DNA from: Escherichia phage PE37 | Reading direction: 5' to 3' (one strand) | Sequence record: NC_054929.1 | DNA: 64,000 nt | Shown here: in pieces, positions 1,172 through 61,840 of the stretch | Numbering within the stretch: the first letter of the stretch is position 1 | Layout of the letters: the number at the start of each line of letters is the position of its first letter | The notes under the pieces: generated by a model | What the model saw: the letters and a program-made list of their open reading frames with translations, nothing else | The model's database searches: none | Told to the model about the DNA's origin: nothing | Translations under genes and position numbers: made by a program

Positions 1172-1717
1172 ATGAGAAAAGCACTACTCGCTGGTCTATT
1201 GGCCATTTCAATGATGGCACATAGCTCCGAGCATACTTTCAGTAATGTCCAACTCGATAACATGCGTTACGCGTATCAATTCGGGGAACAATTTTCTAAG
1301 GATGGAAAATATAAAACACACAAAAATATCCACAAGAGCGGATTAGGTCATATAATGGCTGCTATTTTATGGCAAGAAAGCTCTGGCGGAGTTAATTTAA
1401 AATCTAAACCAAAGCATCACGCCTACGGAATGTTCCAAAATTATTTGCCTACTATGCGAGCAAGAGTTAAGGAACTTGGTTATAATATGACCGATGCTGA
1501 AATAAAAAGAATGTTGAATAAACGGTCCAATTCAGCTTCCTGGGCGTACATTGAACTTTCTTATTGGTTAAATATACATAAGGGCGATATAAGAAAAGCA
1601 ATATCCTCTTATAATTCGGGATGGAATGTTAAAGCAGGTTCTAAATATGCTTCTGAAGTCCTAGAAAAGGCTAATTACCTTAAAAATAATAAACTTTTGG
1701 AAATAGTAAATGACTAA
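1172..1717 (+). CDS. hypothetical secreted protein (181 aa), N-terminal signal peptide
   Basis: Track ORF; hydrophobic N-terminus MRKALLAGLLAISMMAHS. Confidence 0.6.
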   Translation: MRKALLAGLLAISMMAHSSEHTFSNVQLDNMRYAYQFGEQFSKDGKYKTHKNIHKSGLGHIMAAILWQESSGGVNLKSKPKHHAYGMFQNYLPTMRARVKELGYNMTDAEIKRMLNKRSNSASWAYIELSYWLNIHKGDIRKAISSYNSGWNVKAGSKYASEVLEKANYLKNNKLLEIVND

Positions 1718-2051
1718 AATTTTGGTTTTATGTATAGGATTAATTTCATTTTCTGCGTTAGCAAATACATCATATACTGAAATTAGAGAGTATGTAAACC
1801 GTACTGCCGCGGATTATTGCGGGAAAAATAAAGCATGCCAAGCTGAATTTGCGCAGAAATTAATATATGCATATAAAGACGGAGAAAGAGATAAATCAAG
1901 CAGATACAAAAATGATACATTGTTAAAACGATATGCTAAAAAGTGGAATACCTTAGAATGTTCAGTTGCGGAGGAGAAAGATAAAGCCGCTTGTCATTCA
2001 ATGGTTGACCGTTTAGTAGATTCTTATAATCGAGGATTGAGTACTAGATGA
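1710..2051 (+). CDS. hypothetical secreted protein (113 aa), Cys-containing
   Basis: Track ORF; signal-peptide-like N-terminus; start overlaps upstream stop. Confidence 0.55.
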   Translation: MTKILVLCIGLISFSALANTSYTEIREYVNRTAADYCGKNKACQAEFAQKLIYAYKDGERDKSSRYKNDTLLKRYAKKWNTLECSVAEEKDKAACHSMVDRLVDSYNRGLSTR

Positions 2052-2527
2052 TTGTAAAATATATCAAGGGCGATATTGTCGCCCTATTTCTTCAAGGTAA
2101 TATTATTGCGCACGGGTGCAATTGTTTTCATACTATGGGTTCAGGTGTAGCGGGTCAATTAGCAAGAGCCTATCCTAAAATTTTAGAAATAGATAAAACC
2201 ACTACTGAGTACGGTTCTCGTGATAAATTAGGCGATATGTCTATTGTTTTTAAACATAATCCTACGGGATTTGGTATATGCTATAACCTGTATACGCAAT
2301 ACGAACCGGGTCCTAATCTTGATTATGGTGCTTTAGTAAACTGCATGATAGAATTAAATCTACAGGCAGAAACCCTTTTGTTTAAACCAGTAATTTACAT
2401 TCCACGCATAGGTTGTGGTATTGCTGGCGGTGATTGGGATAAGGTTTCTAAATTAATCGACATGTTTACTCCTGATATTGATTTAATAGTGGTGGATTAT
2501 GAAAGTACATTACCCGCATCCGTTTGA
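2048..2527 (+). CDS. macro-domain protein (ADP-ribose binding / possible ADP-ribosyl hydrolase)
   Basis: Macro-domain-like Gly-rich motifs (HGCNCFHTMGSGVAGQ; IPRIGCGIAGGDW); 159 aa; ATGA overlap. Confidence 0.6.
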   Translation: MIVKYIKGDIVALFLQGNIIAHGCNCFHTMGSGVAGQLARAYPKILEIDKTTTEYGSRDKLGDMSIVFKHNPTGFGICYNLYTQYEPGPNLDYGALVNCMIELNLQAETLLFKPVIYIPRIGCGIAGGDWDKVSKLIDMFTPDIDLIVVDYESTLPASV

Positions 2528-2711
2528 TCCTAAAAACAAAGTGGAAATTATTCGTCAATGGGAACGCATTTGCCGTACTAAATGCCCAATTAATAGTCCA
2601 CATGATGTAGATAAAGACTATATTGGAACATTCGTTGAATATACCTTTATTGATAGGAAAGGTCGTAAACAACATGTAGAAGAATATTGCTTAAAGGTTA
2701 CATGGTTATGA
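2499..2711 (+). CDS. hypothetical protein (70 aa)
   Basis: Track ORF, overlaps macro gene 3' end by 29 nt. Confidence 0.4.
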   Translation: MKVHYPHPFDPKNKVEIIRQWERICRTKCPINSPHDVDKDYIGTFVEYTFIDRKGRKQHVEEYCLKVTWL

Positions 2712-2914
2712 GCCAAACTAGTATTCTTAAAAATGCTCATTGTGAAAAGTGTGAATGGCCAGTTGTTTTTGCTTTATGTAATGATGAAATGGCTTGTGAT
2801 TTCGATTATTGGTGCTATTGTTCCAATAAAGGATGCATCAATCATAAAGGTGAAGGATTTTATTCAGGATTTTATCCTTATCCTGATTTCGTTAAAGAAG
2901 GTAAACCGAAATGA
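2708..2914 (+). CDS. Cys-rich small protein (68 aa), possible zinc-binding
   Basis: Track ORF 2687..2914 trimmed to ATG 2708 (ATGA overlap); 9 Cys in 68 aa. Confidence 0.5.
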   Translation: MSQTSILKNAHCEKCEWPVVFALCNDEMACDFDYWCYCSNKGCINHKGEGFYSGFYPYPDFVKEGKPK

Positions 2915-3084
2915 ATAGTTTTGAGTTACAATATGAAGTGTTACGTGAGCTTGATAATTTAATTGAACTCGCTGCTAATAAAGGTTTTGCCATTGGAATC
3001 GGTCAAAAAGATACTGACCATTTAACTACGGAAATATTTAAGCAAAAGCGAATTATTTTAAAACTCCTGGAAATTAATATATGA
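2911..3084 (+). CDS. hypothetical small protein (57 aa)
   Basis: Hand-called ORF, ATGA overlaps on both sides; below track size cut-off. Confidence 0.4.
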   Translation: MNSFELQYEVLRELDNLIELAANKGFAIGIGQKDTDHLTTEIFKQKRIILKLLEINI

Positions 3085-3266
3085 GTCTGAGTAAAGAACA
3101 AAAAGATAAATTGTTTGAGCTTATCCATGAACTTCTAGATGAGCATGCAGAAGCAAACACCTTTTATGATGAATACGGCCCGCTATCTCCCGAACAACAA
3201 GAAGAATTTGCTGACCGGTTTGATAAGAAAGAAAACGAATTAATAGCTTATGTGAATACGCTTTAA
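3081..3266 (+). CDS. hypothetical acidic small protein (61 aa)
   Basis: Track ORF immediately upstream of tk. Confidence 0.5.
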   Translation: MSLSKEQKDKLFELIHELLDEHAEANTFYDEYGPLSPEQQEEFADRFDKKENELIAYVNTL

Positions 3267-3275
3267 GAAGGTGAT

Positions 3276-3857
3276 ATGGCGAGTTTAATTTTTACTTATG
3301 CAGCAATGAATGCTGGAAAATCTGCTTCTCTTTTGACTGCTGCACATAATTATAAAGAACGTGGAATGAGTGTATTAGTTCTTAAGCCTGCTATTGATAC
3401 TCGCGATTCTGTCTGTGAAGTTGTTTCTCGCATTGGAATTAAACAGGAAGCGAATATTATTACAGATGATATGGATATTTTCGAGTTCTATAAATGGGCT
3501 GAAGCACAAAAAGATATTCATTGTGTATTTGTAGATGAAGCTCAGTTTTTAAAAACTGAACAAGTGCATCAATTGAGCCGAATTGTTGATACATATAATG
3601 TTCCTGTTATGGCTTATGGATTAAGGACTGATTTCGCTGGAAAATTGTTTGAAGGTTCTAAAGAACTTTTAGCGATTGCAGATAAACTTATTGAACTAAA
3701 GGCAGTTTGTCATTGCGGCAAAAAAGCGATTATGACAGCTCGATTAATGGAAGATGGAACACCAGTTAAAGAAGGTAATCAAATCTGTATTGGTGATGAA
3801 ATTTATGTTTCTTTGTGCAGAAAACATTGGAATGAATTAACTAAAAAGCTCGGTTAG
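3276..3857 (+). CDS. tk: thymidine kinase
   Basis: 193 aa, P-loop NAGKSASL, near-identical to recalled T4 Tk. Confidence 0.95.
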   Translation: MASLIFTYAAMNAGKSASLLTAAHNYKERGMSVLVLKPAIDTRDSVCEVVSRIGIKQEANIITDDMDIFEFYKWAEAQKDIHCVFVDEAQFLKTEQVHQLSRIVDTYNVPVMAYGLRTDFAGKLFEGSKELLAIADKLIELKAVCHCGKKAIMTARLMEDGTPVKEGNQICIGDEIYVSLCRKHWNELTKKLG

Positions 3858-3899
3858 TGCAAAAGTTATAAATAGGTTTATCTAACTAAAGGGGTATAT

Positions 3900-4112
3900 A
3901 TGCTACAATTAACTGAAAAGCAACTTCGCAATCTTACTGTTCTTCAATTAGATGAAATTCGTAGGGAAGTTGGAAATATCATTTCAGCTTTGCGTCGAGA
4001 AGTATCACTCAACCAATCTCCGGCAGACTATACTAGATTGCGAAATTTTGAAAAATACCTTGATAAAGTTAAGGCCGTGCATCGGCATAAAGTAAATACA
4101 GGACAAAAATGA
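3900..4112 (+). CDS. hypothetical protein (70 aa), rI.1-like by position
   Basis: Track ORF with RBS GGGG upstream. Confidence 0.5.
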
Positions 4113-4124
4113 TAGGAGGCCTTT

Positions 4125-4418
4125 ATGGCCTTAAAAGCAACGGCACTATTTGCCATGCTAGGATTAGCGTTTGCTTTATCTCCACCGATTGAAGCGAATG
4201 TCGATCCTCATTTTGATAAATTTATGGAATCTGGCATTAGACATGTTTATATGCTTTTTGAAAATAAAAGCGTAGAATCATCTGAACAGTTCTATAGTTT
4301 TATGCGAACGACCTATAAAAATGACCCGTGCTCTTCCGATTTTGAATGTATAGAGCGAGGCGCGGAGATGGCACAATCATACGCTAGAATTATGAACATT
4401 AAATTGGAGACTGAATGA
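4125..4418 (+). CDS. rI: RI lysis-inhibition regulator (antiholin), periplasmic
   Basis: 97 aa with signal-anchor; near-identical to recalled T4 RI. Confidence 0.85.
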   Translation: MALKATALFAMLGLAFALSPPIEANVDPHFDKFMESGIRHVYMLFENKSVESSEQFYSFMRTTYKNDPCSSDFECIERGAEMAQSYARIMNIKLETE

Positions 4419-4801
4419 AATTCAGCGACTTTTCACAAAGTGGAAAACCTTCAAAGGCAGATGAATACTTAGGTTTATTAATGGCTGCACAAGCTTATTT
4501 TCATTCTGCACATTTTGAAACTAAAAGTTATGCTAGACACAAAGCATACGATTTTATTTTCTCCGAGTTGCCAGATTTGATTGATAAATTTGGTGAGCAA
4601 TATTTGGGGTATTCTGGTAGAAAATACACACCTTCAATTCCAGATGCCAGTAAACTTCCTACCGACACAATTAAAATGATTGATCGCATACTAGACCAAT
4701 CTAACAGCATTTATAAAGAAATGCCTCCAGCCATCCAAAGCACGATAGATGATATTACTGGAATGTTTTACCAGAGTAAATATCTTCTTTCCCTCGAATA
4801 A
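4415..4801 (+). CDS. hypothetical protein (128 aa), rI.-1-like by position
   Basis: Track ORF, ATGA overlap with rI. Confidence 0.55.
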
Positions 4802-4805
4802 CATT

Positions 4806-4829
4806 AGTCTCCTTCGGGAGACTTTTTTC
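4806..4829 (+). terminator. intrinsic terminator (UUCG-loop hairpin + T-run)
   Basis: agtctcc-ttcg-ggagact followed by tttttt. Confidence 0.65.
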
Positions 4830-4838
4830 ATTTTACCG

Positions 4839-4868
4839 GTTTACTTTCCATTTGAGCTGTGATACTAT
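4839..4868 (+). promoter_or_regulatory. T4-type early promoter
   Basis: gtttactttccatttgagctgtgatactat; follows terminator (PeSL-like arrangement). Confidence 0.55.
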
Positions 4869-4896
4869 ACAACTATCGGATAAAGAGGAGAACATC

Positions 4897-5085
4897 ATGA
4901 AAATTGAAGCACTTAATCAAGAAGGAAATATCTACGTCATTATTAATGGTGATTTTTTCGTCGACATGGATGAAGTTACTAGTGAAGAACTTGTAGAACT
5001 TCTTAAGAAACGTTATAATATGTGTGATGAAGTTGCAACTCACATGGCGTGTGCAATATTCTCTCTTTCATATGTGGTGGAATAA
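4897..5085 (+). CDS. hypothetical small protein (62 aa)
   Basis: Track ORF 4852..5085 trimmed to ATG 4897 with AGAGGAG RBS. Confidence 0.5.
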
Positions 5086-5288
5086 TGATTAGTATTGAAC
5101 AAGCAGATAAAATTAAGGAATTAGTGGCTTCAATTCGTAAAGCAGATGAAGAGCTGATTGACTTTGATTGGTATTCATCGGGTATTTCTAATAAAGGCAT
5201 TAAAGACTTTGAAACTAAAGTGGATAATGCTATAGAAGCGTTAGATATGTTTCTTGATGAAATTATCGATCATAATACAAGAGTGTAA
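5085..5288 (+). CDS. hypothetical acidic small protein (67 aa)
   Basis: Track ORF 5049..5288 trimmed to ATG 5085 (ATGA overlap). Confidence 0.5.
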   Translation: MISIEQADKIKELVASIRKADEELIDFDWYSSGISNKGIKDFETKVDNAIEALDMFLDEIIDHNTRV

Positions 5289-5290
5289 GT

Positions 5291-5485
5291 ATGCTAACAC
5301 GCGAACAGTTTGAAAAAATCATTAAATTAGCACGTGATATTGAAATAGATTCATATCAATTAGCAGTTGAGCATTGTGAAGGATATTCATACGACGGTAT
5401 AGAAGCAGCTAAAAAGGATTTGGATAAATCTAAAGCTAAGCTAGTTCAATATCTTGAAATGATTAGGTGGAATAATGAAAACTGA
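5291..5485 (+). CDS. hypothetical small protein (64 aa)
   Basis: Track ORF. Confidence 0.5.
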   Translation: MLTREQFEKIIKLARDIEIDSYQLAVEHCEGYSYDGIEAAKKDLDKSKAKLVQYLEMIRWNNEN

Positions 5486-5648
5486 AAAGCAGATGTTTTT
5501 AATGAAACTAATTGAAGAATATGCTAATGCAGTTTCTGACTATGAATGTTCTTCTCGGGAAAGAGGTACAGCTTTCGCCAAAGAAGAAATGAAAATCATG
5601 GTTGATGCTCACACAAAGCTTCAGAATTTTATTGAAAACGTCATTTAA
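5475..5648 (+). CDS. hypothetical small protein (57 aa)
   Basis: Hand-called ORF, start overlaps upstream gene. Confidence 0.4.
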   Translation: MKTEKQMFLMKLIEEYANAVSDYECSSRERGTAFAKEEMKIMVDAHTKLQNFIENVI

Positions 5649-5650
5649 TG

Positions 5651-5680
5651 GTTTACAAGTTGGCAAGGTTATGGTATAGT
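5651..5680 (+). promoter_or_regulatory. T4-type early promoter
   Basis: gtttacaagttggcaaggttatggtatagt. Confidence 0.55.
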
Positions 5681-7070: not shown

Positions 7071-7072
7071 TT

Positions 7073-15429: not shown

Positions 15430-15431
15430 AA

Positions 15432-15674: not shown

Positions 15675-15675
15675 T

Positions 15676-16151: not shown

Positions 16152-16153
16152 AT

Positions 16154-16324
16154 ATGATTTACGATATTAATGTATCACGAGCTCCGTCAATGGTTACTAT
16201 TCCAGCCGAAGAACTAGAACGTCTTCAGAAAATTGAAGAACTTCTTTGGGAAATTGAATGTGCCCTGCCATCAGGACTAGAATCCTGGATTGATGATGAA
16301 GAACTTAATAAATTGCGAAATTAA
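16154..16324 (+). CDS. hypothetical acidic small protein (56 aa)
   Basis: Hand-called ORF filling a gap; below track cut-off. Confidence 0.4.
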   Translation: MIYDINVSRAPSMVTIPAEELERLQKIEELLWEIECALPSGLESWIDDEELNKLRN

Positions 16325-23465: not shown

Positions 23466-23667
23466 CCTCTCCGGATTCTTGGAAGAAATACCTGAAGTTG
23501 AAGCTATTCCCTATTTACTTAAAATGTATCTCAGGGAAGTTTTAGCTCTTGACATTGATATTGATCCAGAAAATCCGTATGATACCGCTTTTAAATCTAA
23601 TGGTGTAGAATTAAACTATCGGTATCATTTAACAGATGATGATTTTTATTTTATATTAGAGAAATAA
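23449..23667 (+). CDS. hypothetical acidic protein (72 aa)
   Basis: Track ORF overlapping gene 55 3' end. Confidence 0.45.
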
Positions 23668-23668
23668 T

Positions 23669-23986
23669 ATGACTGATAAACCCGAAATTAATGATGAAGT
23701 GGAAAAGCTTATTTCTTCTATTGAAGAAAAGAACCGTCTTGAAGCAGAAAGAAAAGCAAATAAGTTATTGTCTAAAAACAAACGCGAACTGAATCGTCTT
23801 TATAAGCACGCTCAGATTGCAGCTGAAAATAATAATTTTGCTCAATACGAATATGCTATCAAGAAAAGTCGGGATATTCTAAAACAGCCATATAACGATG
23901 AACTCATCAGTATTCTTTGGAAGACTACTAGATCGCAGATTGAGGATATGATTGATGCTTACACACGTAAAATTCAAGCGTCTTAA
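23669..23986 (+). CDS. hypothetical protein (105 aa)
   Basis: Track ORF. Confidence 0.55.
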   Translation: MTDKPEINDEVEKLISSIEEKNRLEAERKANKLLSKNKRELNRLYKHAQIAAENNNFAQYEYAIKKSRDILKQPYNDELISILWKTTRSQIEDMIDAYTRKIQAS

Positions 23987-24158
23987 AATTAATGCAGGAT
24001 TTACTGAATCTTTGAATGGTCATCTTTGTGTGAAAATTTCTGAAAAAGAATACCATGATAGTTCAATTAAAGAAGTTAATCCTCCTATTGTAAGAGCAGA
24101 CCCTAATATGAAAGTGTGGGTTGATTCTTATCAAGTCAAAAAATGGTGGCAGTTATGA
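23952..24158 (+). CDS. hypothetical protein (68 aa)
   Basis: Track ORF. Confidence 0.45.
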   Translation: MMLTHVKFKRLKINAGFTESLNGHLCVKISEKEYHDSSIKEVNPPIVRADPNMKVWVDSYQVKKWWQL

Positions 24159-24161
24159 AAG

Positions 24162-24335
24162 ATGAACACCCAGACTTCTGAAATAGATTATAATAAAGTT
24201 CGTTCCTTTAAAGAGGAAATGATGAGACTCTTTAAAGAGTCTCATGATAAAGCTAAAGCAGAAGGAACTATAACATATAAGCGCATAAAATTTAAAAGTT
24301 CTAACGAGCCTCTGTATGGCGTATTATGTGGATAG
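24162..24335 (+). CDS. hypothetical small protein (57 aa)
   Basis: Hand-called ORF ending at terminator hairpin. Confidence 0.4.
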   Translation: MNTQTSEIDYNKVRSFKEEMMRLFKESHDKAKAEGTITYKRIKFKSSNEPLYGVLCG

Positions 24336-24350
24336 GAGCTTCGGCTCCTA
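24333..24350 (+). terminator. UUCG-loop hairpin terminator
   Basis: taggagc-ttcg-gctccta. Confidence 0.5.
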
Positions 24351-24351
24351 T

Positions 24352-24378
24352 ATTGCTTTATAAATTTTTGGTAAAATA
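24352..24378 (+). promoter_or_regulatory. MotA-dependent middle promoter (MotA box ATTGCTTTA + -10 TAAAAT)
   Basis: attgctttataaatttttggtaaaat upstream of alpha-gt. Confidence 0.55.
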
Positions 24379-24401
24379 AACCAAAACAAAGAGGATATTA
24401 A

Positions 24402-25604
24402 ATGAAAGTATGTATTTTTATGGCTCGAGGTCTTGAAGGTTGTGGTGTAACAAAATTCTCACTCGAGCAACGTGATTGGTTTATTAAAAATGGTCATGAA
24501 GTGACTTTGGTTTATGCTAAAGATAAATCATTTACTCGTAACTGTGCACATGATTATAAATCATTTTCAATTCCGGTTTTATTGGCAAAAGAATACGATA
24601 AAACACTTAAGCTGGTAAATGATTGTGATATTCTAATTATCAATTCAGTTCCTGCTACTTCAGTTGAAGAAGACACTATTAATAACTATAAAAAAATTAT
24701 TGATAACATTAAACCTTCTGTTCGTGTTGTAGTTTATCAACATGACCATTCTTCTCTTTCTTTGCGCCGAAATTTGGGATTAGAAGAAACTATTCGTCGA
24801 GCTGATGTTATTTTTAGCCATTCTGATAATGGTGATTTTAATAAAGTTCTGATGAAAGAGTGGTATCCAGAAACTGTTTCTCTGTTTGATGATATTGAAG
24901 AAGCACCGACCGTATATAACTTTCAGCCTCCTATGGATATTGCGAAGGTTCGGTCAACTTACTGGAAAGATGTTTCTGAAATTAACATGAATATCAACCG
25001 TTGGATTGGTCGTACGACTACATGGAAAGGTTTTTATCAGATGTTTGATTTTCATGAAAAACATCTTAAACCTGCAGGACTAAGTACTGTTATGGAAGGT
25101 CTGGAACGTTCTCCAGCGTTCATTCCTATTAAAGAAAAAGGAATTCCATACGAGTATTATCGTCTTCATCAAGTAGACCAAATTAAAATTGCTCCTAATT
25201 TGCCAACGCAAATTCTTGACCGTTATGTAAATAGCGAAATGCTTGAACGCATGAGTAAATCCGGATTTGGTTATCAATTGAGTAAGTTGGATAAAAAATA
25301 TCTACAACGTTCTTTAGAATATACTCATCTCGAGCTTGGTGCATGTGGAACAATTCCGGTATTTTGGAAATCTACTGGCGAAAATTTAAAATTCCGTGTT
25401 GATAATACTCCTTTGACCTCGCATGATAGCGGTATCATTTGGTTTGATGAAAATGACATGGAATCAACATTTGAACGTATTAAAGAACTGTCATCTGACC
25501 GAGCTCTTTATGACCGTGAGCGAGAAAAAGCATATGAATTTTTGTATCAGCATCAAGATTCAAGCTTCTGCTTTAAAGAACAGTTTGACATTATTACAAA
25601 ATAA
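24402..25604 (+). CDS. a-gt: DNA alpha-glucosyltransferase (hmC alpha-glucosylation)
   Basis: 400 aa; closely matches recalled T4 alpha-gt sequence. Confidence 0.9.
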   Translation: MKVCIFMARGLEGCGVTKFSLEQRDWFIKNGHEVTLVYAKDKSFTRNCAHDYKSFSIPVLLAKEYDKTLKLVNDCDILIINSVPATSVEEDTINNYKKIIDNIKPSVRVVVYQHDHSSLSLRRNLGLEETIRRADVIFSHSDNGDFNKVLMKEWYPETVSLFDDIEEAPTVYNFQPPMDIAKVRSTYWKDVSEINMNINRWIGRTTTWKGFYQMFDFHEKHLKPAGLSTVMEGLERSPAFIPIKEKGIPYEYYRLHQVDQIKIAPNLPTQILDRYVNSEMLERMSKSGFGYQLSKLDKKYLQRSLEYTHLELGACGTIPVFWKSTGENLKFRVDNTPLTSHDSGIIWFDENDMESTFERIKELSSDRALYDREREKAYEFLYQHQDSSFCFKEQFDIITK

Positions 25605-36478: not shown

Positions 36479-37219
36479 ATGATTAGTGACTCTATGACAG
36501 TTGAAGAAATCCGTCTTCATTTGGGGCTTGCATTAAAAGAAAAAGATTTCGTAGTTGATAAAACCGGTGTTAAAACTATTGAAATTATTGGCGCATCATT
36601 TGTAGCAGATGAACCGTTTATTTTTGGCGCTCTTAATGATGAATACATTCAGCGTGAACTTGAATGGTATAAATCTAAGAGCTTGTTTGTTAAAGATATT
36701 CCAGGTGAAACACCAAAGATTTGGCAGCAGGTAGCATCTTCTAAAGGCGAAATTAACTCGAATTATGGTTGGGCTATTTGGTCAGAAGATAACTATGCCC
36801 AGTATGATATGTGTTTAGCTGAACTTGGTCAAAATCCTGATTCTCGACGTGGTATCATGATTTATACTCGTCCATCCATGCAATTTGACTACAATAAAGA
36901 TGGTATGTCAGATTTCATGTGTACGAATACCGTACAATACTTGATTCGTGACAAGAAAATCAATGCGGTTGTTAACATGAGAAGCAATGATTGCTGGGCA
37001 GGCTATCGTAATGATTATGCATGGCAAAAATACGTATTAGATAAATTAGTATCTGATTTGAATGCAGGCGACCCATCGCGGCAATATAAAGCAGGTTCTA
37101 TTATATGGAACGTTGGAAGTCTTCATGTGTACGAAAATCAGTTTTATTTAGTTGACCATTGGTGGAACACTGGTGAAACTCATATTGCTAAAAAGGATTA
37201 TACTGGAAAATGGAAGTAA
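36479..37219 (+). CDS. 42: dCMP hydroxymethylase gp42
   Basis: 246 aa, thymidylate-synthase-like fold; length and position as in T4. Confidence 0.9.
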   Translation: MISDSMTVEEIRLHLGLALKEKDFVVDKTGVKTIEIIGASFVADEPFIFGALNDEYIQRELEWYKSKSLFVKDIPGETPKIWQQVASSKGEINSNYGWAIWSEDNYAQYDMCLAELGQNPDSRRGIMIYTRPSMQFDYNKDGMSDFMCTNTVQYLIRDKKINAVVNMRSNDCWAGYRNDYAWQKYVLDKLVSDLNAGDPSRQYKAGSIIWNVGSLHVYENQFYLVDHWWNTGETHIAKKDYTGKWK

Positions 37220-37851
37220 ATGCGCCACATGTTTATAAGTATAAACATCCTAAAACTAAAAAGTGGTATATAGGAAGTCATGATGGTCACAACCCGAATT
37301 ATGATGGTTCGGGTGTAGTTTGGCAACATGCTAAAAAGAAATATGGAATAAAATCCTTTAATAAAGAAATATTATATGAAGGACCAATGTTTAGACAGGT
37401 TGAAGAAATTATTTTAACTTGTTTAGATGCTGCTAATTGTCCGGATTCATATAATTTAAAGAATGAAGCATGGGGAGGAAGTTTTCCAGGCAAATTAAAT
37501 GGAATGTACGGTAAAAAACTATCTCCAGAAGAAAGATATAAGTGCGGAAATGCCTTTCGTGGAATCAAGCGTCCTGATCATTCTAAAAGAATGAAAGGCG
37601 AAGGTAATCCAATGTATGGTAAAAATGAGCAAGCATATGGAATTATAAATCGAGCAAAGGAAAATTCTGGTAAAACTTATGAAGAAATTTTTGGCGCAGA
37701 AAAAGCTAAAATAATTAAAGAAACGATGTCTAAAAATCGTAAAGGAAAACCTCATAATTTGATAGAAAAAATATGTCCGTATTGCGGACTAAAAGGACGT
37801 GGGCCAAATATGACAAGATACCATTTTGACAAATGTAAGGCACTTAAATGA
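37210..37851 (+). mobile_element. GIY-YIG homing endonuclease gene (Seg-like, free-standing)
   Basis: N-terminal VYKYKHP-x5-WYIGS motif, repeated GxxxS/NPMYGK motifs, C-terminal CPYC-x-CxxC zinc finger; absent at this locus in T4. Confidence 0.7.
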
Positions 37852-38690
37852 TTCAATTCGTAATTCCAAGCTATCAACGCGTAGGGGCAGTTTCTGCCCT
37901 TGATATGTTTCCGACTGATTATGAACCTCATATTGTAGTACGTGAACATGAAGAAAAAGCTTATTATGACGCTTACGGGTCTAGGGCTAAAATTATAACT
38001 ATTCCTGATGATGTTAATGGAATTGCTGGTACTCGTAAAGCAATTACTGATATGTATGCAGGTCAACGAATCTGGATGATTGATGATGATACTACTATTC
38101 GTATGAGTTCAATGCGAAAAAGAGATGATCGTCGTTGTGTGGATAAAGTCAATCAATTGACTCGTGAACAGTTCTATGAATTGATTCAATATGTTGAGGA
38201 TGCCATGGATTGTGGGTATTATCATGGCCATGCTCGTCTACCTATTTTTAAAATTACTTCATCTTGGGGTAATTATCGTGAAAATTCATATGGATTCACG
38301 AATACATGGTATGACCTCGGAAAACTTACGACAGAACAAATTGGGTATGGAAAAATTGATTTGTGCGAAGATATGTATGCATTTCTCAATTTAATTAATC
38401 AAGGTTATCCGCATTTGGCCTTGTTCAAATATCTGGTTGTATCTGGAAAAGCACAAGCTCCTGGCGGGTGCAGTTCAATTCGTAGTAATTCTAAACATAA
38501 TAGAGCGCTTGAACAAATCAATAGAGAATTTCCAGAGCAAGCTCGTTGGAAAACTTCTAATATTGAAAAACGAAAATCGTTGGGTGAAGAAGATGAGCCA
38601 TTAAAGGTTCTTCGTATGTGTGTTTCGCGCAAAGAAAAATCAGAAGCATTTCATAAGTTTAATGCTATTCATCCGATAGCAGTTGATTAA
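37848..38690 (+). CDS. putative DNA glycosyltransferase (GT-A-like, DxD motif) at the beta-gt locus; candidate T2/T6-type beta-alpha-glucosyltransferase
   Basis: 280 aa; IWMIDDDTT DxD motif; occupies position of T4 beta-gt but is unrelated to the 351-aa T4 protein. Confidence 0.5.
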   Translation: MIQFVIPSYQRVGAVSALDMFPTDYEPHIVVREHEEKAYYDAYGSRAKIITIPDDVNGIAGTRKAITDMYAGQRIWMIDDDTTIRMSSMRKRDDRRCVDKVNQLTREQFYELIQYVEDAMDCGYYHGHARLPIFKITSSWGNYRENSYGFTNTWYDLGKLTTEQIGYGKIDLCEDMYAFLNLINQGYPHLALFKYLVVSGKAQAPGGCSSIRSNSKHNRALEQINREFPEQARWKTSNIEKRKSLGEEDEPLKVLRMCVSRKEKSEAFHKFNAIHPIAVD

Positions 38691-42578: not shown

Positions 42579-43214
42579 ATGATTTATTATATGCACAAAA
42601 ATCCACCGTTTAAATACGGTAAATTTCCTGATGCACAATGTTATAATATAACACCTGATGAAAATAACCGTGGATATCTTATTGGCACAATTTTTGTAAT
42701 TGTTAAAGATAACGAAATCGTTGCCTGGGCAGATTTTAAAGGTACAACATATGATGTTAATCCGGTGCCTTTCACATATTACAATATAATGGATTTGGCG
42801 TACGATTATAATTGGTTTAATCATGACACGTTGGCTCCTCATATTGAAGGTGTAGGATTTGACATCTCTTATTCTAGTTACTCGTTGTGTCCTATGAGCC
42901 GAGCTCATAGAGAGCCTGAATATTTTTCATTTCGTCGGCGTGTAGACTTTAAACGCAGCACAGAGTATGTCGGTGGAATATTTGTTAAAGATAATCGAAT
43001 TACTCGCATTATTTATCCTTTGGGCGGTGGTCAAAAAGATATTGATGTTGATTTAGACTTTACTGAAAACATCATTAATCATATTGCTTCTGTGTATTTT
43101 GATATTGATCACAAAATTGTAATATGTGGATATGAATTACCATCAGAAAAACAGTCTAAAGTAAATGTTTCTATTGATGACCAAATTTTTAATGCTTTTA
43201 TGAATAGAGGTTAA
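42579..43214 (+). CDS. hypothetical protein (211 aa)
   Basis: Track ORF. Confidence 0.6.
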   Translation: MIYYMHKNPPFKYGKFPDAQCYNITPDENNRGYLIGTIFVIVKDNEIVAWADFKGTTYDVNPVPFTYYNIMDLAYDYNWFNHDTLAPHIEGVGFDISYSSYSLCPMSRAHREPEYFSFRRRVDFKRSTEYVGGIFVKDNRITRIIYPLGGGQKDIDVDLDFTENIINHIASVYFDIDHKIVICGYELPSEKQSKVNVSIDDQIFNAFMNRG

Positions 43215-43215
43215 T

Positions 43216-43380
43216 ATGAAAACATATAAAGAATTTATCAAAGAAGATATGGTCGCTGGAGATTCAGGTGGTAATCCTGAAAATATCTCTACTGGAACAA
43301 CGTCAGGCGCTGTAGTAAATAAAGGTCCTGAACAGATTCCTAAAAAGAAGAAAGAGGAATCTAAAGAAAAAGAAGAGTAA
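43216..43380 (+). CDS. hypothetical Lys/Glu-rich small protein (54 aa)
   Basis: Hand-called ORF between 42579 ORF and gene 61. Confidence 0.45.
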   Translation: MKTYKEFIKEDMVAGDSGGNPENISTGTTSGAVVNKGPEQIPKKKKEESKEKEE

Positions 43381-43382
43381 AA

Positions 43383-44411
43383 ATGTCATCAATACCTTGG
43401 ATTGATAATGAGTTTGCGTATCGTGCATTAGCTCATTTACCTAAATTCACACAAGTAAATAACAGTTCAACTTTTAAATTGCGGTTTAGATGTCCTGTTT
43501 GTGGAGATTCAAAAACCGACCAAAATAAAGCCCGTGGATGGTATTATGGTGATAATAATGAAGGAAATATTCATTGTTATAACTGTAACTATCATGCACC
43601 AATCGGAATATATTTAAAGGAGTTTGAACCCGATTTATATCGTGAGTATATCCTTGAAATAAGAAAAGAAAAAGGTAAAAGTCGTCCAGTAGAAAAACCT
43701 AAAGAACTTCCTAAGCGACCTGAGAAGAAAATAATTAAATCTCTTCCGTCATGTGTTAGATTAGATAAACTGGCGGAAGACCATCCAATTATAAAATATG
43801 TAAAAGCTCGTTGTATTCCAAAGGATAAATGGAAATATCTTTGGTTTACAACCGAATGGCCTAAATTAGTTAATAGCATAGCACCGGGAACATACAAAAA
43901 GGAAATTTCTGAGCCTCGTCTTGTTATTCCAATTTATAATGCTAATGGAAAAGCTGAGTCTTTTCAAGGACGTGCATTAAAGAAAGATGCTCCTCAAAAA
44001 TATATCACCATTAAAGCTTATCCTGAGGCAACAAAAATATATGGAGTCGAACGAGTTAAAGATGGTGATGTATATGTTCTAGAAGGACCTATAGATTCAC
44101 TTTTTATTGAAAATGGTATAGCTATTACGGGTGGTCAATTAGACCTAGAAGTTGTTCCATTTAAAGATAGACGTGTGTGGGTCTTAGATAATGAACCTCG
44201 TCACCCTGACACTATCAAACGAATGACTAAATTAGTTGATGCAGGAGAAAGGGTTATGTTTTGGGATAAATCTCCCTGGAAATCAAAAGATGTCAATGAT
44301 ATGATTAGAAAGGAAGGTGCAACCCCTGAACAAATTATGGAATATATGAAAAATAATATTGCACAGGGGTTGATGGCTAAAATGCGGCTATCTAAATATG
44401 CCAAGATTTAA
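43383..44411 (+). CDS. 61: DNA primase gp61
   Basis: 342 aa; zinc ribbon CPVCGDS...CYNC; TOPRIM-like region. Confidence 0.93.
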   Translation: MSSIPWIDNEFAYRALAHLPKFTQVNNSSTFKLRFRCPVCGDSKTDQNKARGWYYGDNNEGNIHCYNCNYHAPIGIYLKEFEPDLYREYILEIRKEKGKSRPVEKPKELPKRPEKKIIKSLPSCVRLDKLAEDHPIIKYVKARCIPKDKWKYLWFTTEWPKLVNSIAPGTYKKEISEPRLVIPIYNANGKAESFQGRALKKDAPQKYITIKAYPEATKIYGVERVKDGDVYVLEGPIDSLFIENGIAITGGQLDLEVVPFKDRRVWVLDNEPRHPDTIKRMTKLVDAGERVMFWDKSPWKSKDVNDMIRKEGATPEQIMEYMKNNIAQGLMAKMRLSKYAKI

Positions 44412-44704: not shown

Positions 44705-46042
<1,338 letters not shown>

Positions 46043-46044
<2 letters not shown>

Positions 46045-46104: not shown

Positions 46105-46623
46105 ATGTCTCACTTTAATGAATGCGCTCATTTGATCGAAGGTGTTGATAAAGCAACTCGTGCATATGCTGAGAATATTATGCGCAATATTGACCCATTG
46201 CAGGTTATGCTTGATATGCAGCGGTCTTTACAGATTCGTTTGGCTAATGATAAACCAGAAACAAATCGTCATCCTGATTCACTTGAAACAGCAGGAGAAG
46301 TTCTTGCTTGGTTGCGAAACCAAGACGATTATATCGCAGATGAAACTCGCGAACTATATACTTCTCTTGGTGGTATGAGTAATGGTGAAAAAGAAGCTTC
46401 TGCTGTATGGAAACCTTGGAAGAAACGTTATTCTGAAATGCAATCCAAGAAAATTCAAGATTTATCTCCCGAAGATCAGCTTGAAATTAAATTTGAACTG
46501 ATTGACCAATTTCACTTTTTCATGAATAAATTTATTGCTCTTGGAATGTCAGCTGAAGAAATATTTAAACTTTATTATCTGAAAAATGCTGAAAATTTCG
46601 CTCGTCAAGACCGAGGTTATTGA
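46105..46623 (+). CDS. 56: dCTP pyrophosphatase gp56
   Basis: 172 aa; matches recalled T4 gp56. Confidence 0.9.
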   Translation: MSHFNECAHLIEGVDKATRAYAENIMRNIDPLQVMLDMQRSLQIRLANDKPETNRHPDSLETAGEVLAWLRNQDDYIADETRELYTSLGGMSNGEKEASAVWKPWKKRYSEMQSKKIQDLSPEDQLEIKFELIDQFHFFMNKFIALGMSAEEIFKLYYLKNAENFARQDRGY

Positions 46624-46665
46624 TGATATAAATATACCTGTAATTAAACAATAAAGGAGTTTATT

Positions 46666-46902
46666 ATGGGTGGTTTCGTTAACATCAAGACCTTTACTCA
46701 TCCAGCGGGTGAAGGCAAAGAAGTTAAAGGTATGGAAGTTTCTGTTCCGTTTGAAATCTATTCTAACGAGCATCGTATTGCAGATTCTCATTATCAAATC
46801 TTTCCGTCAGAAAAAGCAGCTTATTCTGATGTAGTTTCCGATGCAGCAACTTGGAAAACTAAGAATGCTGCAATGTTTACGCCTACAGAAATAGGTGGTT
46901 AA
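46666..46902 (+). CDS. soc: small outer capsid protein Soc
   Basis: 78 aa; central and C-terminal similarity to recalled T4 Soc (HYQxFPSEKAAYS). Confidence 0.8.
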   Translation: MGGFVNIKTFTHPAGEGKEVKGMEVSVPFEIYSNEHRIADSHYQIFPSEKAAYSDVVSDAATWKTKNAAMFTPTEIGG

Positions 46903-56260: not shown

Positions 56261-56685
56261 TGGCTATTAAATTTGAAGTTAATAAATGGTATCAATTTAA
56301 AAATAAACAAGCTCAAGAAGATTTTATCAAGGACCATACTGAAAACGGAATTTATGCACGACGTCTTGGTATGGAACCTTTTAGAGTTACAGATATTGAC
56401 TATCTTGGTCGTCCTACTAAACTTGTGACATCTAGTGGAAAATTGGGGTTATCTTCTGGTAAAGATATTTTGGATGAAGATTTTATCTGGCTTTCAACGA
56501 GTGAAGCTGTGTTCTTTGATGAAGTGGAAAATCCATACCAGGCAGCTGAAGAGCAAGAGCAGGAAGAGAAAGAGCAAGAACAAATAGAAGATTTCACAGA
56601 ATTCCCGGTCATGAAAGTTACTATTGAAAATAATGAACAGGCATGGTCTTTGTATCAGATGTTGAAAGCACACTTTAAGGAATAA
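56260..56685 (+). CDS. goF: hypothetical protein (141 aa) with acidic C-terminus, possibly GoF
   Basis: Length and position match T4 goF; symbol by synteny only. Confidence 0.4.
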
Positions 56686-56687
56686 TT

Positions 56688-56864
56688 ATGCCAATGTATG
56701 ATTATAAATGCCAATCCGAAGATTGCGGGCATGAATATGAAAAAATTAAAAAGATTTCTGAACGAGAAAATGATGTTTGCCCTAAATGTCATCGTTTGTC
56801 TACTCGTCGGCCTTCTGCTCCTAAGCATGTGAATGGCGGTTTTTACGATTTACTTAAAGGGTGA
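56688..56864 (+). CDS. small zinc-ribbon protein (58 aa; CxxC-x16-CxxC)
   Basis: Hand-called ORF MPMYDYKCQSEDCGHEYEK...CPKCHR; below track cut-off. Confidence 0.5.
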   Translation: MPMYDYKCQSEDCGHEYEKIKKISERENDVCPKCHRLSTRRPSAPKHVNGGFYDLLKG

Positions 56865-56866
56865 TT

Positions 56867-57241
56867 ATGTTTAAAATCGGTAAGAAATATCGTGTTCGCG
56901 AAGGTGAAGAAAAGAAATATCTACTTTCTGCTAGTAATAGGAATGGTTCTATTAATGCCGTAATATCTACAAGCGAATTTATCGTTGAAGATATGAAAGG
57001 TCATAATGTTACAATGATTAGTACAGCAACTAGCAGAAATGCTGGAAAAATTCTTCACAGTCTGCGGAGTGAAGTTCTAATTTATGATGAAGAATTTGAC
57101 TTCTTCGAAGAAGTCACTGAAGATTTTGATTTTGAATGCACTATCACTATGAAATCTGGCGACCCTCTTTCTTTTACAGTTAAAGATGAAAGAAGCCGTT
57201 TGAGAATTATTAGTCTCCTTCAAGCCATTAAATTTAAGTGA
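56867..57241 (+). CDS. hypothetical protein (124 aa)
   Basis: Track ORF 56861..57241 trimmed to ATG 56867. Confidence 0.55.
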   Translation: MFKIGKKYRVREGEEKKYLLSASNRNGSINAVISTSEFIVEDMKGHNVTMISTATSRNAGKILHSLRSEVLIYDEEFDFFEEVTEDFDFECTITMKSGDPLSFTVKDERSRLRIISLLQAIKFK

Positions 57242-57507
57242 AAACTATGAAATATATTAATCGTTCTATTGCAGCATTAGTATTAGCAGTATCTTTAGTA
57301 GGATGTACTGATGCTGATAATGCAACTAAAATTTTATCATCAAGTGGTTTTACGAATATTGAAATCACTGGATATAACTGGTTCGGTTGCTCTGAAAATG
57401 ATTTCCAACATACTGGATTTCGTGCTATTGGACCTACTGGGCAGAAAGTAGAAGGAACAGTATGTTCTGGGTTGTTCTTTAAGGATTCAACTATTCGTTT
57501 TAAATAA
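57238..57507 (+). CDS. predicted lipoprotein (89 aa)
   Basis: Signal peptide with lipobox LVGC. Confidence 0.55.
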   Translation: MKTMKYINRSIAALVLAVSLVGCTDADNATKILSSSGFTNIEITGYNWFGCSENDFQHTGFRAIGPTGQKVEGTVCSGLFFKDSTIRFK

Positions 57508-57524
57508 AAGGCCTTCGGGCCTTT
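57507..57524 (+). terminator. UUCG-loop hairpin terminator
   Basis: aaaggccttcgggccttt. Confidence 0.6.
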
Positions 57525-57550
57525 AGCTTTATGATTGCCGGAGTATAATA
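57522..57550 (+). promoter_or_regulatory. middle promoter (MotA-box-like AGCTTTA + TATAAT) upstream of gene 39
   Basis: tagctttatgattgccggagtataat. Confidence 0.45.
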
Positions 57551-57576
57551 TTCCCGAAACCAAACGAGGATAAGTA

Positions 57577-59394
57577 ATGATTAAGAATGAAATTAAAATT
57601 CTGAGCGATATTGAACATATCAAAAAGCGTAGTGGCATGTATATTGGCTCTTCTGCTAATGAAATGCATGAGCGCTTTCTGTTTGGTAAATGGGAAAGTG
57701 TTCAGTATGTACCTGGTCTTGTTAAGCTCATTGATGAAATTATCGATAACTCAGTCGATGAAGGTATTCGTACTAAGTTTAAATTCGCGAATAAAATTAA
57801 TGTTACCATTAAAAATAATCAGGTAACAGTTGAAGATAACGGTCGTGGTATTCCACAAGCGATGGTTAAAACACCTACCGGTGAAGAAATTCCTGGTCCA
57901 GTTGCTGCTTGGACTATTCCAAAAGCAGGTGGTAACTTTGGTGATGATAAAGAACGTGTCACCGGTGGTATGAATGGTGTTGGTTCTAGTTTAACTAACA
58001 TTTTTTCTGTGATGTTTGTCGGTGAAACTGGCGATGGTCAAAATAATATTGTAGTTCGTTGTTCAAATGGTATGGAAAATAAATCCTGGGAAACTATTCC
58101 TGGAAAATGGAAAGGAACTCGTGTTACTTTCATTCCTGATTTTATGTCATTTGAAACTAATGAGCTGTCTCAGGTTTATCTTGATATTACACTGGATCGT
58201 CTCCAGACACTTGCTGTTGTTTATCCTGATATTCAATTTACCTTTAATGGTAAAAAGGTTCAGGGCAATTTTAAGAAATATGCACGACAGTATGATGAAC
58301 ACGCTATTGTTCAAGAACAAGAAAATTGTTCTATTGCGGTTGGTCGTTCACCGGATGGTTTTCGTCAATTAACTTATGTGAATAACATTCACACTAAGAA
58401 TGGTGGTCATCACATTGATTGTGTTATGGATGATATTTGTGAAGACCTTATTCCACAAATCAAACGTAAATTCAAAATTGATGTAACTAAAGCACGCGTT
58501 AAAGAATGTTTGACTATCGTTATGTTTGTTCGTGATATGAAAAACATGCGATTTGATTCTCAAACTAAAGAGCGTTTGACTTCTCCATTTGGCGAAATTC
58601 GTAGTCATATTCAGCTTGATGCTAAAAAGATTTCACGCGCTATTCTAAATAATGAAGCAATTTTAATGCCGATTATTGAAGCTGCGTTGGCTCGTAAATT
58701 GGCGGCAGAAAAAGCAGCAGAAACTAAAGCAGCTAAAAAGGCTTCTAAAGCTAAGGTTCATAAACATATCAAAGCGAATCTCTGTGGTAAAGATGCTGAC
58801 ACTACTCTTTTCTTGACTGAGGGTGATTCTGCTATCGGATATCTTATTGATGTTCGTGATAAAGAACTTCATGGTGGTTATCCATTGCGTGGTAAAGTTC
58901 TCAACAGTTGGGGTATGTCATATGCTGATATGCTTAAAAACAAAGAACTATTTGATATTTGCGCAATCACTGGATTAGTTCTTGGTGAAAAAGCTGAAAA
59001 CTTGAATTATCATAATATTGCTATTATGACCGATGCTGACCATGATGGTTTAGGAAGCATTTATCCTTCTCTGCTCGGATTTTTTAGTAATTGGCCAGAA
59101 TTGTTTGAGCAAGGACGAATTCGCTTTGTCAAAACTCCTGTAATCATCGCTCAGGTCGGTAAAAAACAAGAATGGTTTTATACAGTCGCTGAATATGAGA
59201 GTGCTAAAGATGCTCTACCTAAACATAGCATCCGTTATATTAAAGGACTTGGCTCTTTGGAAAAATCTGAATATCGTGAGATGATTCAAAATCCAGTATA
59301 TGATGTTGTTAAACTTCCTGAGAACTGGAAAGAGCTTTTTGAAATGCTCATGGGAGATAATGCTGACCTTCGTAAAGAATGGATGAGCCAGTAG
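57577..59394 (+). CDS. 39: DNA topoisomerase II large subunit gp39, fused form (ATPase + gene-60-equivalent C-terminus)
   Basis: 605 aa single ORF with GHKL ATPase motifs; T4 has split 39/60, T2/T6 have a fused gene. Confidence 0.9.
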   Translation: MIKNEIKILSDIEHIKKRSGMYIGSSANEMHERFLFGKWESVQYVPGLVKLIDEIIDNSVDEGIRTKFKFANKINVTIKNNQVTVEDNGRGIPQAMVKTPTGEEIPGPVAAWTIPKAGGNFGDDKERVTGGMNGVGSSLTNIFSVMFVGETGDGQNNIVVRCSNGMENKSWETIPGKWKGTRVTFIPDFMSFETNELSQVYLDITLDRLQTLAVVYPDIQFTFNGKKVQGNFKKYARQYDEHAIVQEQENCSIAVGRSPDGFRQLTYVNNIHTKNGGHHIDCVMDDICEDLIPQIKRKFKIDVTKARVKECLTIVMFVRDMKNMRFDSQTKERLTSPFGEIRSHIQLDAKKISRAILNNEAILMPIIEAALARKLAAEKAAETKAAKKASKAKVHKHIKANLCGKDADTTLFLTEGDSAIGYLIDVRDKELHGGYPLRGKVLNSWGMSYADMLKNKELFDICAITGLVLGEKAENLNYHNIAIMTDADHDGLGSIYPSLLGFFSNWPELFEQGRIRFVKTPVIIAQVGKKQEWFYTVAEYESAKDALPKHSIRYIKGLGSLEKSEYREMIQNPVYDVVKLPENWKELFEMLMGDNADLRKEWMSQ

Positions 59395-59397
59395 TTT

Positions 59398-59428
59398 ACT
59401 TTACCACAAGGATGTGGTATAATTAATT
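59398..59428 (+). promoter_or_regulatory. T4-type early promoter
   Basis: gtttactttaccacaaggatgtggtataat. Confidence 0.55.
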
Positions 59429-59448
59429 GGGCAAATGAGGATATTGAA

Positions 59449-59652
59449 ATGAAATCATATAGAGTAAATTTAGAACTTTTTGATAAAGCAGTTCATCGAG
59501 AATATAGAATCATTCAACGCTTTTTCGATATGGGAGAAGCCGAAGAATTTAAAAACCGCTTTAAAGATATTAGAGATAAAATTCAATCCGACACCGCAAC
59601 TAAAGATGAACTACTAGAAGTTGCTGAAGTTATTAAGCGTAATATGAATTAA
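59449..59652 (+). CDS. hypothetical protein (67 aa), rIIA.1-like by position
   Basis: Track ORF. Confidence 0.55.
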
Positions 59653-59662
59653 TGAGGAAATT

Positions 59663-61840
59663 ATGATTATCACCACTGAAAAAGAAACAATTCTTGGTAA
59701 TGGTTCTAAATCAAAAGCATTTAGCATCACAGCATCTCCTAAAGTATTTAAAATTCTGTCATCTGATTTGTATACAAACAAAATTCGCGCAGTAGTCCGT
59801 GAATTGATTACCAACATGATTGATGCTCATGCTCTCAATGGAAATCCTGAAAAATTTATCATTCAAGTTCCTGGACGTTTAGATCCACGATTTGTTTGCC
59901 GAGATTTTGGTCCGGGTATGAGTGATTTTGATATTCAGGGTGATGATAATTCTCCTGGTTTGTATAATTCATACTTCAGTTCATCTAAGGCTGAATCTAA
60001 CGATTTCATTGGCGGATTTGGTTTAGGTTCTAAATCTCCGTTTAGTTATACTGATACGTTTAGTATTACTTCGTATCATAAAGGTAAAATTCGTGGTTAT
60101 GTAGCTTACATGGATGGTGATGGCCCACAGATTAAACCTACATTCGTAAAAGAAATGGGTCCAGATGATAAAACTGGTATTGAAATCGTAGTTCCAGTTG
60201 AAGAAAAAGACTTTAGAAACTTTGCTTATGAAGTTTCTTATATCATGCGACCGTTCAAAGATTTGGCTATTATTAATGGTCTTGACCGTGAAATTGATTA
60301 TTTTCCGGATTTTGATGATTATTACGGTGTAAATCCAGAAAGATACTGGCCTGATCGTGGTGGATTATATGCTATCTATGGCGGTATTGTTTATCCTATC
60401 GATGGTGTTATTAGAGACCGTAACTGGCTAAGCATTCGCAATGAAGTGAATTACATTAAGTTTCCAATGGGTTCACTTGATATTGCTCCATCACGTGAAG
60501 CTCTTTCATTGGATGATCGCACTCGTAAAAATATTATTGAACGAGTTAAAGAGCTTAGTGAGAAAGCATTTAATGAAGATGTAAAACGATTTAAAGAATC
60601 TACATCTCCCCGTCACACATATCGTGAATTGATGAAGATGGGGTATTCTGCTCGAGATTATATGATTAGTAATTCAGTCAAATTCACGACTAAAAATCTG
60701 TCATATAAAAAGATGCAGAGTATGTTTGAACCTGACAGTAAGTTATGTAATGCAGGCGTGGTGTATGAAGTAAATCTTGACCCTCGACTGAAGCGCATTA
60801 AGCAAAGTCATGAAACTTCAGCCGTTGCATCAAGTTATCGTCTGTTTGGTATTAATGCAACAAAAATTAATATCGTTATTGATAATATTAAAAATCGTGT
60901 TAATATTGTCCGTGGATTAGCACATGCGTTAGATGATAGTGAATTTAATAACACTTTGAATATTCATCACAATGAGCGTCTTCTGTTTATTAATCCGGAA
61001 GTAGAATCGCAGATTGATTTGCTTCCTGATATTATGGCGATGTTTGAAAGTGATGAAGTTAACATTCATTATTTGTCAGAAATTGAAAATTTAGTTAAAA
61101 GCTATATTCCAAAGGTAGTTAAAAGTAAAGCTCCTCGTCCTAAAGCTGCTACAGCATTTAAGTTTGAAATTAAAGACGGGCGCTGGGAAAAAGAGGAACT
61201 GTTTACACTTACGTCAGAAGCAGATGAAATTACTGGGTATGTAGCGTATATGCATCGTTCTGATATTTTCTCTATGGATGGTACTACATCTCTTTGTCAT
61301 CCATCTATGAATATTTTGATTCGTATGGCTAATCTTATTGGCATTAATGAATTTTATGTTATTCGTCCGCTTTTGCAGAAAAAGGTAAAAGAACTCGGTC
61401 AGTGCCAATGTATTTTTGAAACTCTGCGTGATTTATATGTAGATGCTTTTGATGATGTAGATTATGATAAGTATGTAGGTTATTCAAGTTCAGCTCAACG
61501 GTATATTGATAAAATTATCAAGCATCCTGAACTAGATTTTATGATGAAGTACTTCAGTACAGATGAAGTTTCTGAAGAATATACACGACTCGCTAATATA
61601 GTTAGTTCATTGCGCGGTGTATATTTTAATGGTGGAAAAGATACCATCGGTCATGATATCTGGACAGTAACTAATCTTTTTGATGTATTATCAAATAATG
61701 CTTCAAAAAACAGTGATAAAATGGTTGCTGAGTTTACCAAGAAATTCCGTATTGTTTCCGACTTCATCGGATATCGCAACTCTTTAAGTGATGATGAAGT
61801 TTCCCAAATCGCTAAAACTATGAAGGCCCTTGCGGCCTAA
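59663..61840 (+). CDS. rIIA: rIIA membrane-associated protein
   Basis: 725 aa, length and position as T4 rIIA. Confidence 0.9.

Follow-up and report, generated by a model that had tools for sequence, protein, structure and literature searches.

The record of bacteriophage T4 (NC_000866) annotates rIIA, rIIA.1, gene 60, 60.1, mobA and gene 39, and in it, as a preliminary description of the DNA considered here had stated, the large subunit of the topoisomerase is split into genes 39 and 60 around mobA/60.1, gene 60 being joined over a 50-nt 'non-coding translational bypass region' (2803..2852). The question raised by the corresponding locus of Escherichia phage PE37 (NC_054929.1) is whether the subunit is encoded there in one piece and, if it is, whether the gene was ever interrupted. 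We analysed a stretch of 64,000 nucleotides, referred to below as the window. Between positions 57577 and 59394 its + strand carries exactly one ORF of 605 aa, the single fused frame reported in the preliminary description; it starts with ATG, ends with TAG, has no in-frame stop (ORF listing) and lies in a region of 35–38% G+C, like its surroundings. At ~35% G+C, a frame of 605 open codons has a chance probability of ~(1 − 0.07)^605, or ~1e-19; therefore the ORF is real and not a chance frame. We conclude that 57577..59394 is almost certainly the intact, never-interrupted 'parental' form of the T-even gene 39, encoding a whole type IIA large subunit in one chain, and we found no data that speak against this reading. 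Its domain content, colinearity, near-identity to T6 gp39 and freedom from the T4 cassette are matters of direct observation. The feature is already known throughout, from the literature, from a solved structure and from hundreds of identical database entries.

The ORF, together with PHROGs and PDB comparisons, identifies 57577..59394 (+) as gene 39 of the unsplit, '39+60' type, the large subunit of a T-even phage type IIA DNA topoisomerase. Family phrog_543 ('DNA topoisomerase II large subunit') matches over aa 1–605 with an E-value of 1.6e-295. The top PDB match, 8ylu_C, also spans aa 1–605 and differs at one position (Q526H; Q here, H in T6); in 8YLU, a structure of T6 Topo II bound to DNA, this chain is the gp39 of phage T6 (PMC11461880). 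Next among the PDB matches comes an engineered T4 gp39–gp60 fusion, which aligns as two stretches, and the alignments to human TOP2A/B and yeast Top2 run unbroken through aa 10–603. The same 605-aa sequence can already be found in public records on 376 contigs, where it goes by names including 'DNA topoisomerase large subunit [Escherichia phage AV121]'.

Pfam places HATPase_c, DNA_gyraseB, Toprim and TOPRIM_C in that order along the one chain, all encoded on the + strand. The GHKL ATPase core (aa 47–149, 57715..58023), with N58 and a DNGRGIP motif, is matched by HATPase_c with an E-value of 1.9e-9; the transducer domain (aa 250–384, 58324..58728), with its QTK loop Q329-T330-K331, by DNA_gyraseB with 1.5e-13; and the TOPRIM-associated C-terminal domain (aa 519–604, 59131..59388) by TOPRIM_C with 4.1e-7, all three above cut-off. 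The TOPRIM core (aa 410–492, 58804..59052), containing the metal-binding residues E415 and D486-x-D488 as well as D490, is matched by Pfam Toprim below cut-off (E 0.0047; 17.5 bits against a gathering score of 23.1), and the same region aligns continuously with human, yeast and bacterial type IIA TOPRIM domains among the PDB matches. Read residue by residue, N58, Q329-T330-K331, E415, D486, D488 and D490 are all present, and E415, D486 and D488 are contiguous in one ORF with the TOPRIM domain uninterrupted. The roles of these catalytic and structural residues have been described (PMC11461880).

The GHKL–transducer–TOPRIM architecture is common to the cellular type IIA topoisomerases, that is, to the N-terminal half of eukaryotic Topo II and to GyrB/ParE, with which alignment is continuous over aa 5–603. 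In contrast, the breakage–reunion half in the phage is a separate small protein, gp52, rather than GyrA/ParC, and is not fused as it is in eukaryotes (T4 record; PMC11461880). The closest record, ECP52, and others label the gene gyrB, as though its product were a gyrase B (or ParE) of bacterial type, and NCBIfam gyrB/parE models do match the protein with E-values from 1e-50 to 1e-69. Their scores, however, fall far under the curated cut-offs (234 against 740, 218 against 882, 209 against 900 and 169 against 723 bits); moreover, eukaryotic Topo II chains outscore gyrase B on the protein (206 against 130 bits; PDB), and the near-identical T6 protein has been characterised, with gp52 as its partner, as a Topo II that relaxes DNA (PMC11461880). 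For the T4 and T6 enzymes the published activity is relaxation only, and not the ATP-dependent negative supercoiling of a gyrase. With every score below the NCBIfam equivalog cut-off, a gyrB/parE identity was rejected, and we consider it highly improbable. The proper label is 'DNA topoisomerase II large subunit (gp39, unsplit T2/T6 type)' and not 'gyrB', and there is no programmed bypass to annotate. Many deposited genomes, among them ON782582.1 (ECP52), KP869105.1 and MF158046.1, label the gene 'hypothetical protein' or 'gyrB / DNA gyrase subunit B', and rIIA.1 is named 'transaldolase' in the T2 record AP018813; all three labels are annotation errors in public records.

Comparison with T4 at the level of single bases locates the difference between the two arrangements. 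By blastn, window positions 57246–58994 correspond to T4 5660..3911 with 95.5% identity and positions 59046–60200 to T4 2806..1652 with 97.8%, leaving 1104 nt in T4 (2807..3910) against 51 nt in the window (58995..59045). At the protein level, aa 1–473 match T4 gp39 1–473 at 465 of 473 positions (98.3%), and aa 472–605 match T4 gp60 27–160 at 128 of 134 (95.5%). The C-terminal region, on whose kinship with gp60 the preliminary description had made its reading depend, is thus a true gp60 counterpart. Its picture of 450 aa of gp39 homology followed by 160 aa of gp60 homology was right as to colinearity with both halves and wrong as to their extents, which are gp39 1–473 and ~130 aa of gp60; this is because in T4 the cassette encodes the final 43 aa of gp39 and the initial ~30 aa of gp60, for which the window has no counterpart (bioRxiv 10.1101/2022.08.31.505936). 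These two pieces, the gp39 tail (FEEKEDGEW...RKNL) and the start of gp60, make up the 71 residues that T4 has in surplus.

T4 therefore has the same enzyme as the window, and its flanking genes 39.1, rIIA.1 and rIIA are also the same. The T4 insert encodes the 43-aa gp39 tail, remnants of an HNH endonuclease (mobA/60.1) and the ~30-aa N-terminal extension of gp60, and it further carries a recoded copy of the deleted stretch, named 'homR' (bioRxiv 10.1101/2022.08.31.505936), and the 50-nt gap; the window lacks all of these parts. Positions 58996–59049 of the window encode ENLNYHNIAIMTDADHDG, and their counterpart in T4, gp60 codons 29–46, encodes SSMNYANVAIMTDADHDG; only 35 of the 54 nt are identical. 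When compared with T4 gene 60 codons 45–48 and the 50-nt gap, the counterpart of the T4 take-off and landing codons in the window is the uninterrupted GAT GGT TTA GGA (59044..59055, +; D490 G491 L492 G493). At the same place T4 reads GAT GGA (TAG CCTTCGGG ... 50 nt ... GGA) TTA GGT.

The 9 nt that follow also differ, being TTAGGAAGC in the window and TTAGGTTCT in T4. The 3′ end of the cassette has been mapped just after D490/G491, the insert in the E. coli clade has been reported to reach 9 nt past the landing codon, and the unsplit genes have been described as the parental state (bioRxiv 10.1101/2022.08.31.505936). Taken with that published extension, the difference from T4 in these 9 nt places the empty site of the MobA/bypass cassette at 58996..59058 (+; aa 474–494), with its left junction after A473, its right junction 9 nt past G491, and a sequence of the T2 type. 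A further difference from T4 lies elsewhere in the gene: at aa 326–328, directly before the QTK loop, T4 gp39 reads MR-LIR-QTKERL, whereas the window (58552–58560), T2, T6 and RB51 read MR-FDS-QTKERL. Three successive changes in an otherwise 98%-identical protein suggest a frameshift and its compensation, in the T4 sequence or in the stock, more than they suggest ordinary divergence.

The preliminary description had also held that there was no gene 60 split, no mobA and no translational bypass in this gene. This was borne out by cassette searches of the whole 64 kb, which were negative, and by the uninterrupted GAT GGT TTA GGA. Searching the 64-kb window with tblastn revealed no gp60.1, T4 MobA fragment, gp39 tail or gp60 N-terminal extension (best E 0.12); the gp39 tail and gp60 extension peptides are likewise absent from the alignment and gave E-values of at least 0.19 over the 64 kb. 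When the cassette DNA was compared with the same 64 kb by blastn at word size 7, the sole match was the homologous 46 nt at 59003–59048, with 76% identity. At the junction (59044–59055) there is no 50-nt coding gap with matched GGA codons and a UAG stop, and the CTTCGG hairpin motif of the T4 gap does not occur within gene 39 of the window.

These results also bear on whether gene 39 might harbour a recoding or splitting device elsewhere in its length, or of a form unlike that of T4. We found no point in support of such a device. The reading frame runs unbroken from its ATG to its TAG, the protein is colinear with T6 gp39 at every residue, the gene contains no CTTCGG-type hairpin and an Rfam scan found no family in the window, all of which argue against it; the Rfam scan was equally empty at the T4 locus, Rfam having no model of the bypass element, and its absence is uninformative for that element. 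We regard a device of this kind as improbable in the extreme.

An uninterrupted gene could nevertheless have a more complicated history. Re-fused genes are known in other phage clades, including an Aeromonas phage clade (bioRxiv 10.1101/2022.08.31.505936), and gene 39 of the window might once have been split by the MobA cassette and have been rejoined later through loss of the endonuclease and the bypass ('hit and run'); a clean replacement through recombination with an unsplit relative would indeed leave no trace. Re-fused genes, however, keep the cassette-encoded C-terminal tail and N-terminal extension (bioRxiv 10.1101/2022.08.31.505936), and neither is found here (tblastn E ≥ 0.19). Furthermore, the protein has exactly the 605 aa of its counterparts in T2, T6 and RB51, and the site at 58996–59058 is 2/63 nt from T2, while its first 54 nt match the copy in the T4 cassette at only 35 of 54. 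Because the window contains no remnants of the cassette, we consider secondary re-fusion very unlikely and favour a gene that was never interrupted.

Both of the changes that separate the empty site from that of T2 are synonymous, ACC replacing ACT at 59029–59031 and TTA replacing CTA at 59050–59052. MobA nicking and homing have been reported in T2, and polymorphisms alone did not stop MobA nicking, in both cases according to work as cited in bioRxiv 10.1101/2022.08.31.505936. Because the site lies only 2/63 nt from that of T2, in which MobA acts, 58996..59058 is presumably a live MobA homing target in mixed infections, its susceptibility being judged from sequence likeness. It is very unlikely, though conceivable, that the two synonymous changes could alter susceptibility to MobA homing and make this a naturally resistant or hypersensitive allele.

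The arrangement in the window had been assigned to the T2/T6 type, and this is correct. T2 (AP018813) and T6 (NC_054907) each have one CDS of 1818 nt at the same map position (2447..4264), encoding proteins that differ from the window protein by 2 and 1 aa, respectively. Nucleotide identity of the gene is 96.5% with T2, 97.1% with T6 (53 of 1818 nt differ, nearly all of them synonymously) and 97.0% with RB51 (ACP30921.1; 1 aa difference). In T2 gene 39 and in RB51 '60plus39'/'gp60plus39', as in the window, there is a single 1818-nt CDS, and only scattered synonymous changes separate those genes from that of the window. T6 gp39 (YP_010067157.1; PDB 8YLU, 8YO1, 8YO5, 8YO7, 8YOD, 8YON and 9IMJ) is also of 605 aa, with equal domain order and catalytic residues; its gene, like that in the window, sits between 39.1 and rIIA.1, and no functional difference between the two proteins is expected. 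The map order 39.2 – (ORF) – 39.1 – 39 – rIIA.1 – rIIA – rIIB is kept in the window and is the same in RB51, T2 and T6.

In order to assess how common the unsplit gene is, a junction query of 281 nt (58880–59160) was compared with phage records, and the junction was counted as intact when the query was matched in one piece with a coverage of at least 80%. Because pieces were joined only within 640 nt, T4-like records show two separate places with this query. The junction is intact in 453 of 498 matching phage records, and T4 cassette DNA occurs in 43 phage records only. The unsplit gene is the norm, found in about nine-tenths of sequenced relatives, and T4 is the exception. The proposal that an unsplit gene helps to place the phage is therefore sound in one respect, as it excludes the T4-like minority, that is, the Tequatrovirus minority bearing the MobA/bypass cassette (43 records, against 453 intact); otherwise it is a weak marker, because 453 of 498 matching records share it. 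Beyond annotation, the significance of the finding is small.

The likely workings of the gene product can be drawn from its close relatives. By homology with the T6 enzyme, gp39 of the window would pair with gp52, which carries the catalytic tyrosine, in a gp39(2)gp52(2) heterotetramer; this enzyme would pass one duplex through a transient double-strand break at the expense of ATP and so relax DNA during phage replication, with the metal chemistry of TOPRIM E415/D486/D488 supporting the gp52 tyrosine. ATP-dependent relaxation has been demonstrated experimentally for the T6 enzyme, whose large subunit is near-identical to the window protein (PMC11461880). We infer enzyme activity, subunit assembly and the MobA sensitivity of the empty site by analogy with these systems. 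A match to gp52 was not obtained by tblastn in the 64-kb window; in the T4 record gene 52 lies ~2.8 kb beyond rIIB, which in a matching layout is past the end of the window. Gene 39 itself is translated conventionally, from one start to one stop, and involves neither a coding gap nor recoding. The split in T4 is a derived state, produced by a mobile cassette in which the MobA HNH endonuclease and the 50-nt bypass are combined with the tail of gp39 and the N-terminal extension of gp60; the absence of that cassette from the window leaves an empty T2-type homing site at 58996..59058.

Signals that could serve expression of the gene were read from the sequence on either side of it. On the + strand upstream, a MotA-box-like TTTAGCTTTA is followed by a 12-nt spacer and TATAAT (57544–57549), the whole extending over 57522..57549; it was not called by a sigma-70 scan, and by the known MotA-box consensus it may be a T4-type middle promoter. 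A G+C-rich hairpin, AAAGGCC-TTCG-GGCCTTT (57507..57524, +), directly follows the stop of the 39.1 homologue; it has no T-run and was not called in a terminator scan. The Shine–Dalgarno sequence GAGG (57566..57569, +) lies 7 nt upstream of the gene 39 start codon. Downstream, the sigma-70 scan found a sigma-70-type promoter-like site on the + strand between gene 39 and rIIA.1 (59395..59423; TTTACT, 17-nt spacer, TATAAT and an extended TG; 10 of 12 matches), which sets the downstream limit of the gene 39 unit. The gene beyond it, rIIA.1, occupies 59449–59652 (Pfam T4_RIIA1, E 2e-33).

Two small genes upstream differ from what is annotated in T4. The gp39.1 homologue (57238–57507) has 89 aa in the window against 65 aa annotated in T4, and its N-terminus resembles a lipoprotein signal peptide that closes with a lipobox-like LVGC (MKTMKYINRSIAALVLAVSLVGC...). 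The T4 alignment runs upstream of the annotated start of 39.1, to T4 5660, and the T4 annotation of 39.1 may therefore be N-terminally truncated, or the gene disrupted. Between 39.2 and 39.1 the window has a 126-aa ORF (56861–57241) that is absent in T4 and present in RB51, T6 and RB32 ('RB32ORF005c'); it belongs to phrog_622 (unknown function) and has weak similarity to goF-like proteins (phrog_13003, E 9e-7).

A window-wide comparison with T4 revealed further differences. Absent from the window are the nrdD group I intron with I-TevII (T4 44815–45849), mobC (T4 42917–43517), mobB (T4 37818–38678), segF (T4 15338–16282) and mobD (T4 56450–57257). The places in the window at which T4 homing-endonuclease elements are lacking are 18312–18313, ~19590–19610, 24387–24410, 46611–46895 and 6568–7529; that of mobD holds a y05I-like ORF of 173 aa and a predicted membrane ORF of 153 aa. 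The absence of segF, segA, mobB, mobC, mobD, the nrdD intron and the gene 39 cassette fits the known picture of T4 as unusually rich in homing-endonuclease elements.

A 536-nt insert specific to the window contains a 186-aa ORF (44705–45265) that has no T4 counterpart and ends exactly where dam (45265–46044) begins. Its product falls in phrog_8706 (unknown function; E 3.5e-116), and has a faint, sub-threshold match to the Pfam DpnII restriction endonuclease family (E 0.0096; 15.7 against 23 bits), with no NCBIfam match and no meaningful PDB match. A GATC-related nuclease-like protein adjoining Dam would be interesting if true, and this resemblance is too weak to claim one.

At 37210–38690, the window replaces T4 segA and the beta-glucosyltransferase gene (T4 23556–25486) with two other ORFs. 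The first (37210–37851) encodes a seg-like homing endonuclease of 213 aa (phrog_314, E 1e-30), which TIGR01453 'group I intron endonuclease' and NUMOD3 also match weakly. The second (37848–38690) encodes a 280-aa beta-glucosyl-HMC-alpha-glucosyltransferase (phrog_842, E 6e-89; Pfam TAGT), a DNA-glucosylation enzyme of the T2/T6 type, and is a better marker of T2/T6-like character than the unsplit gene 39.
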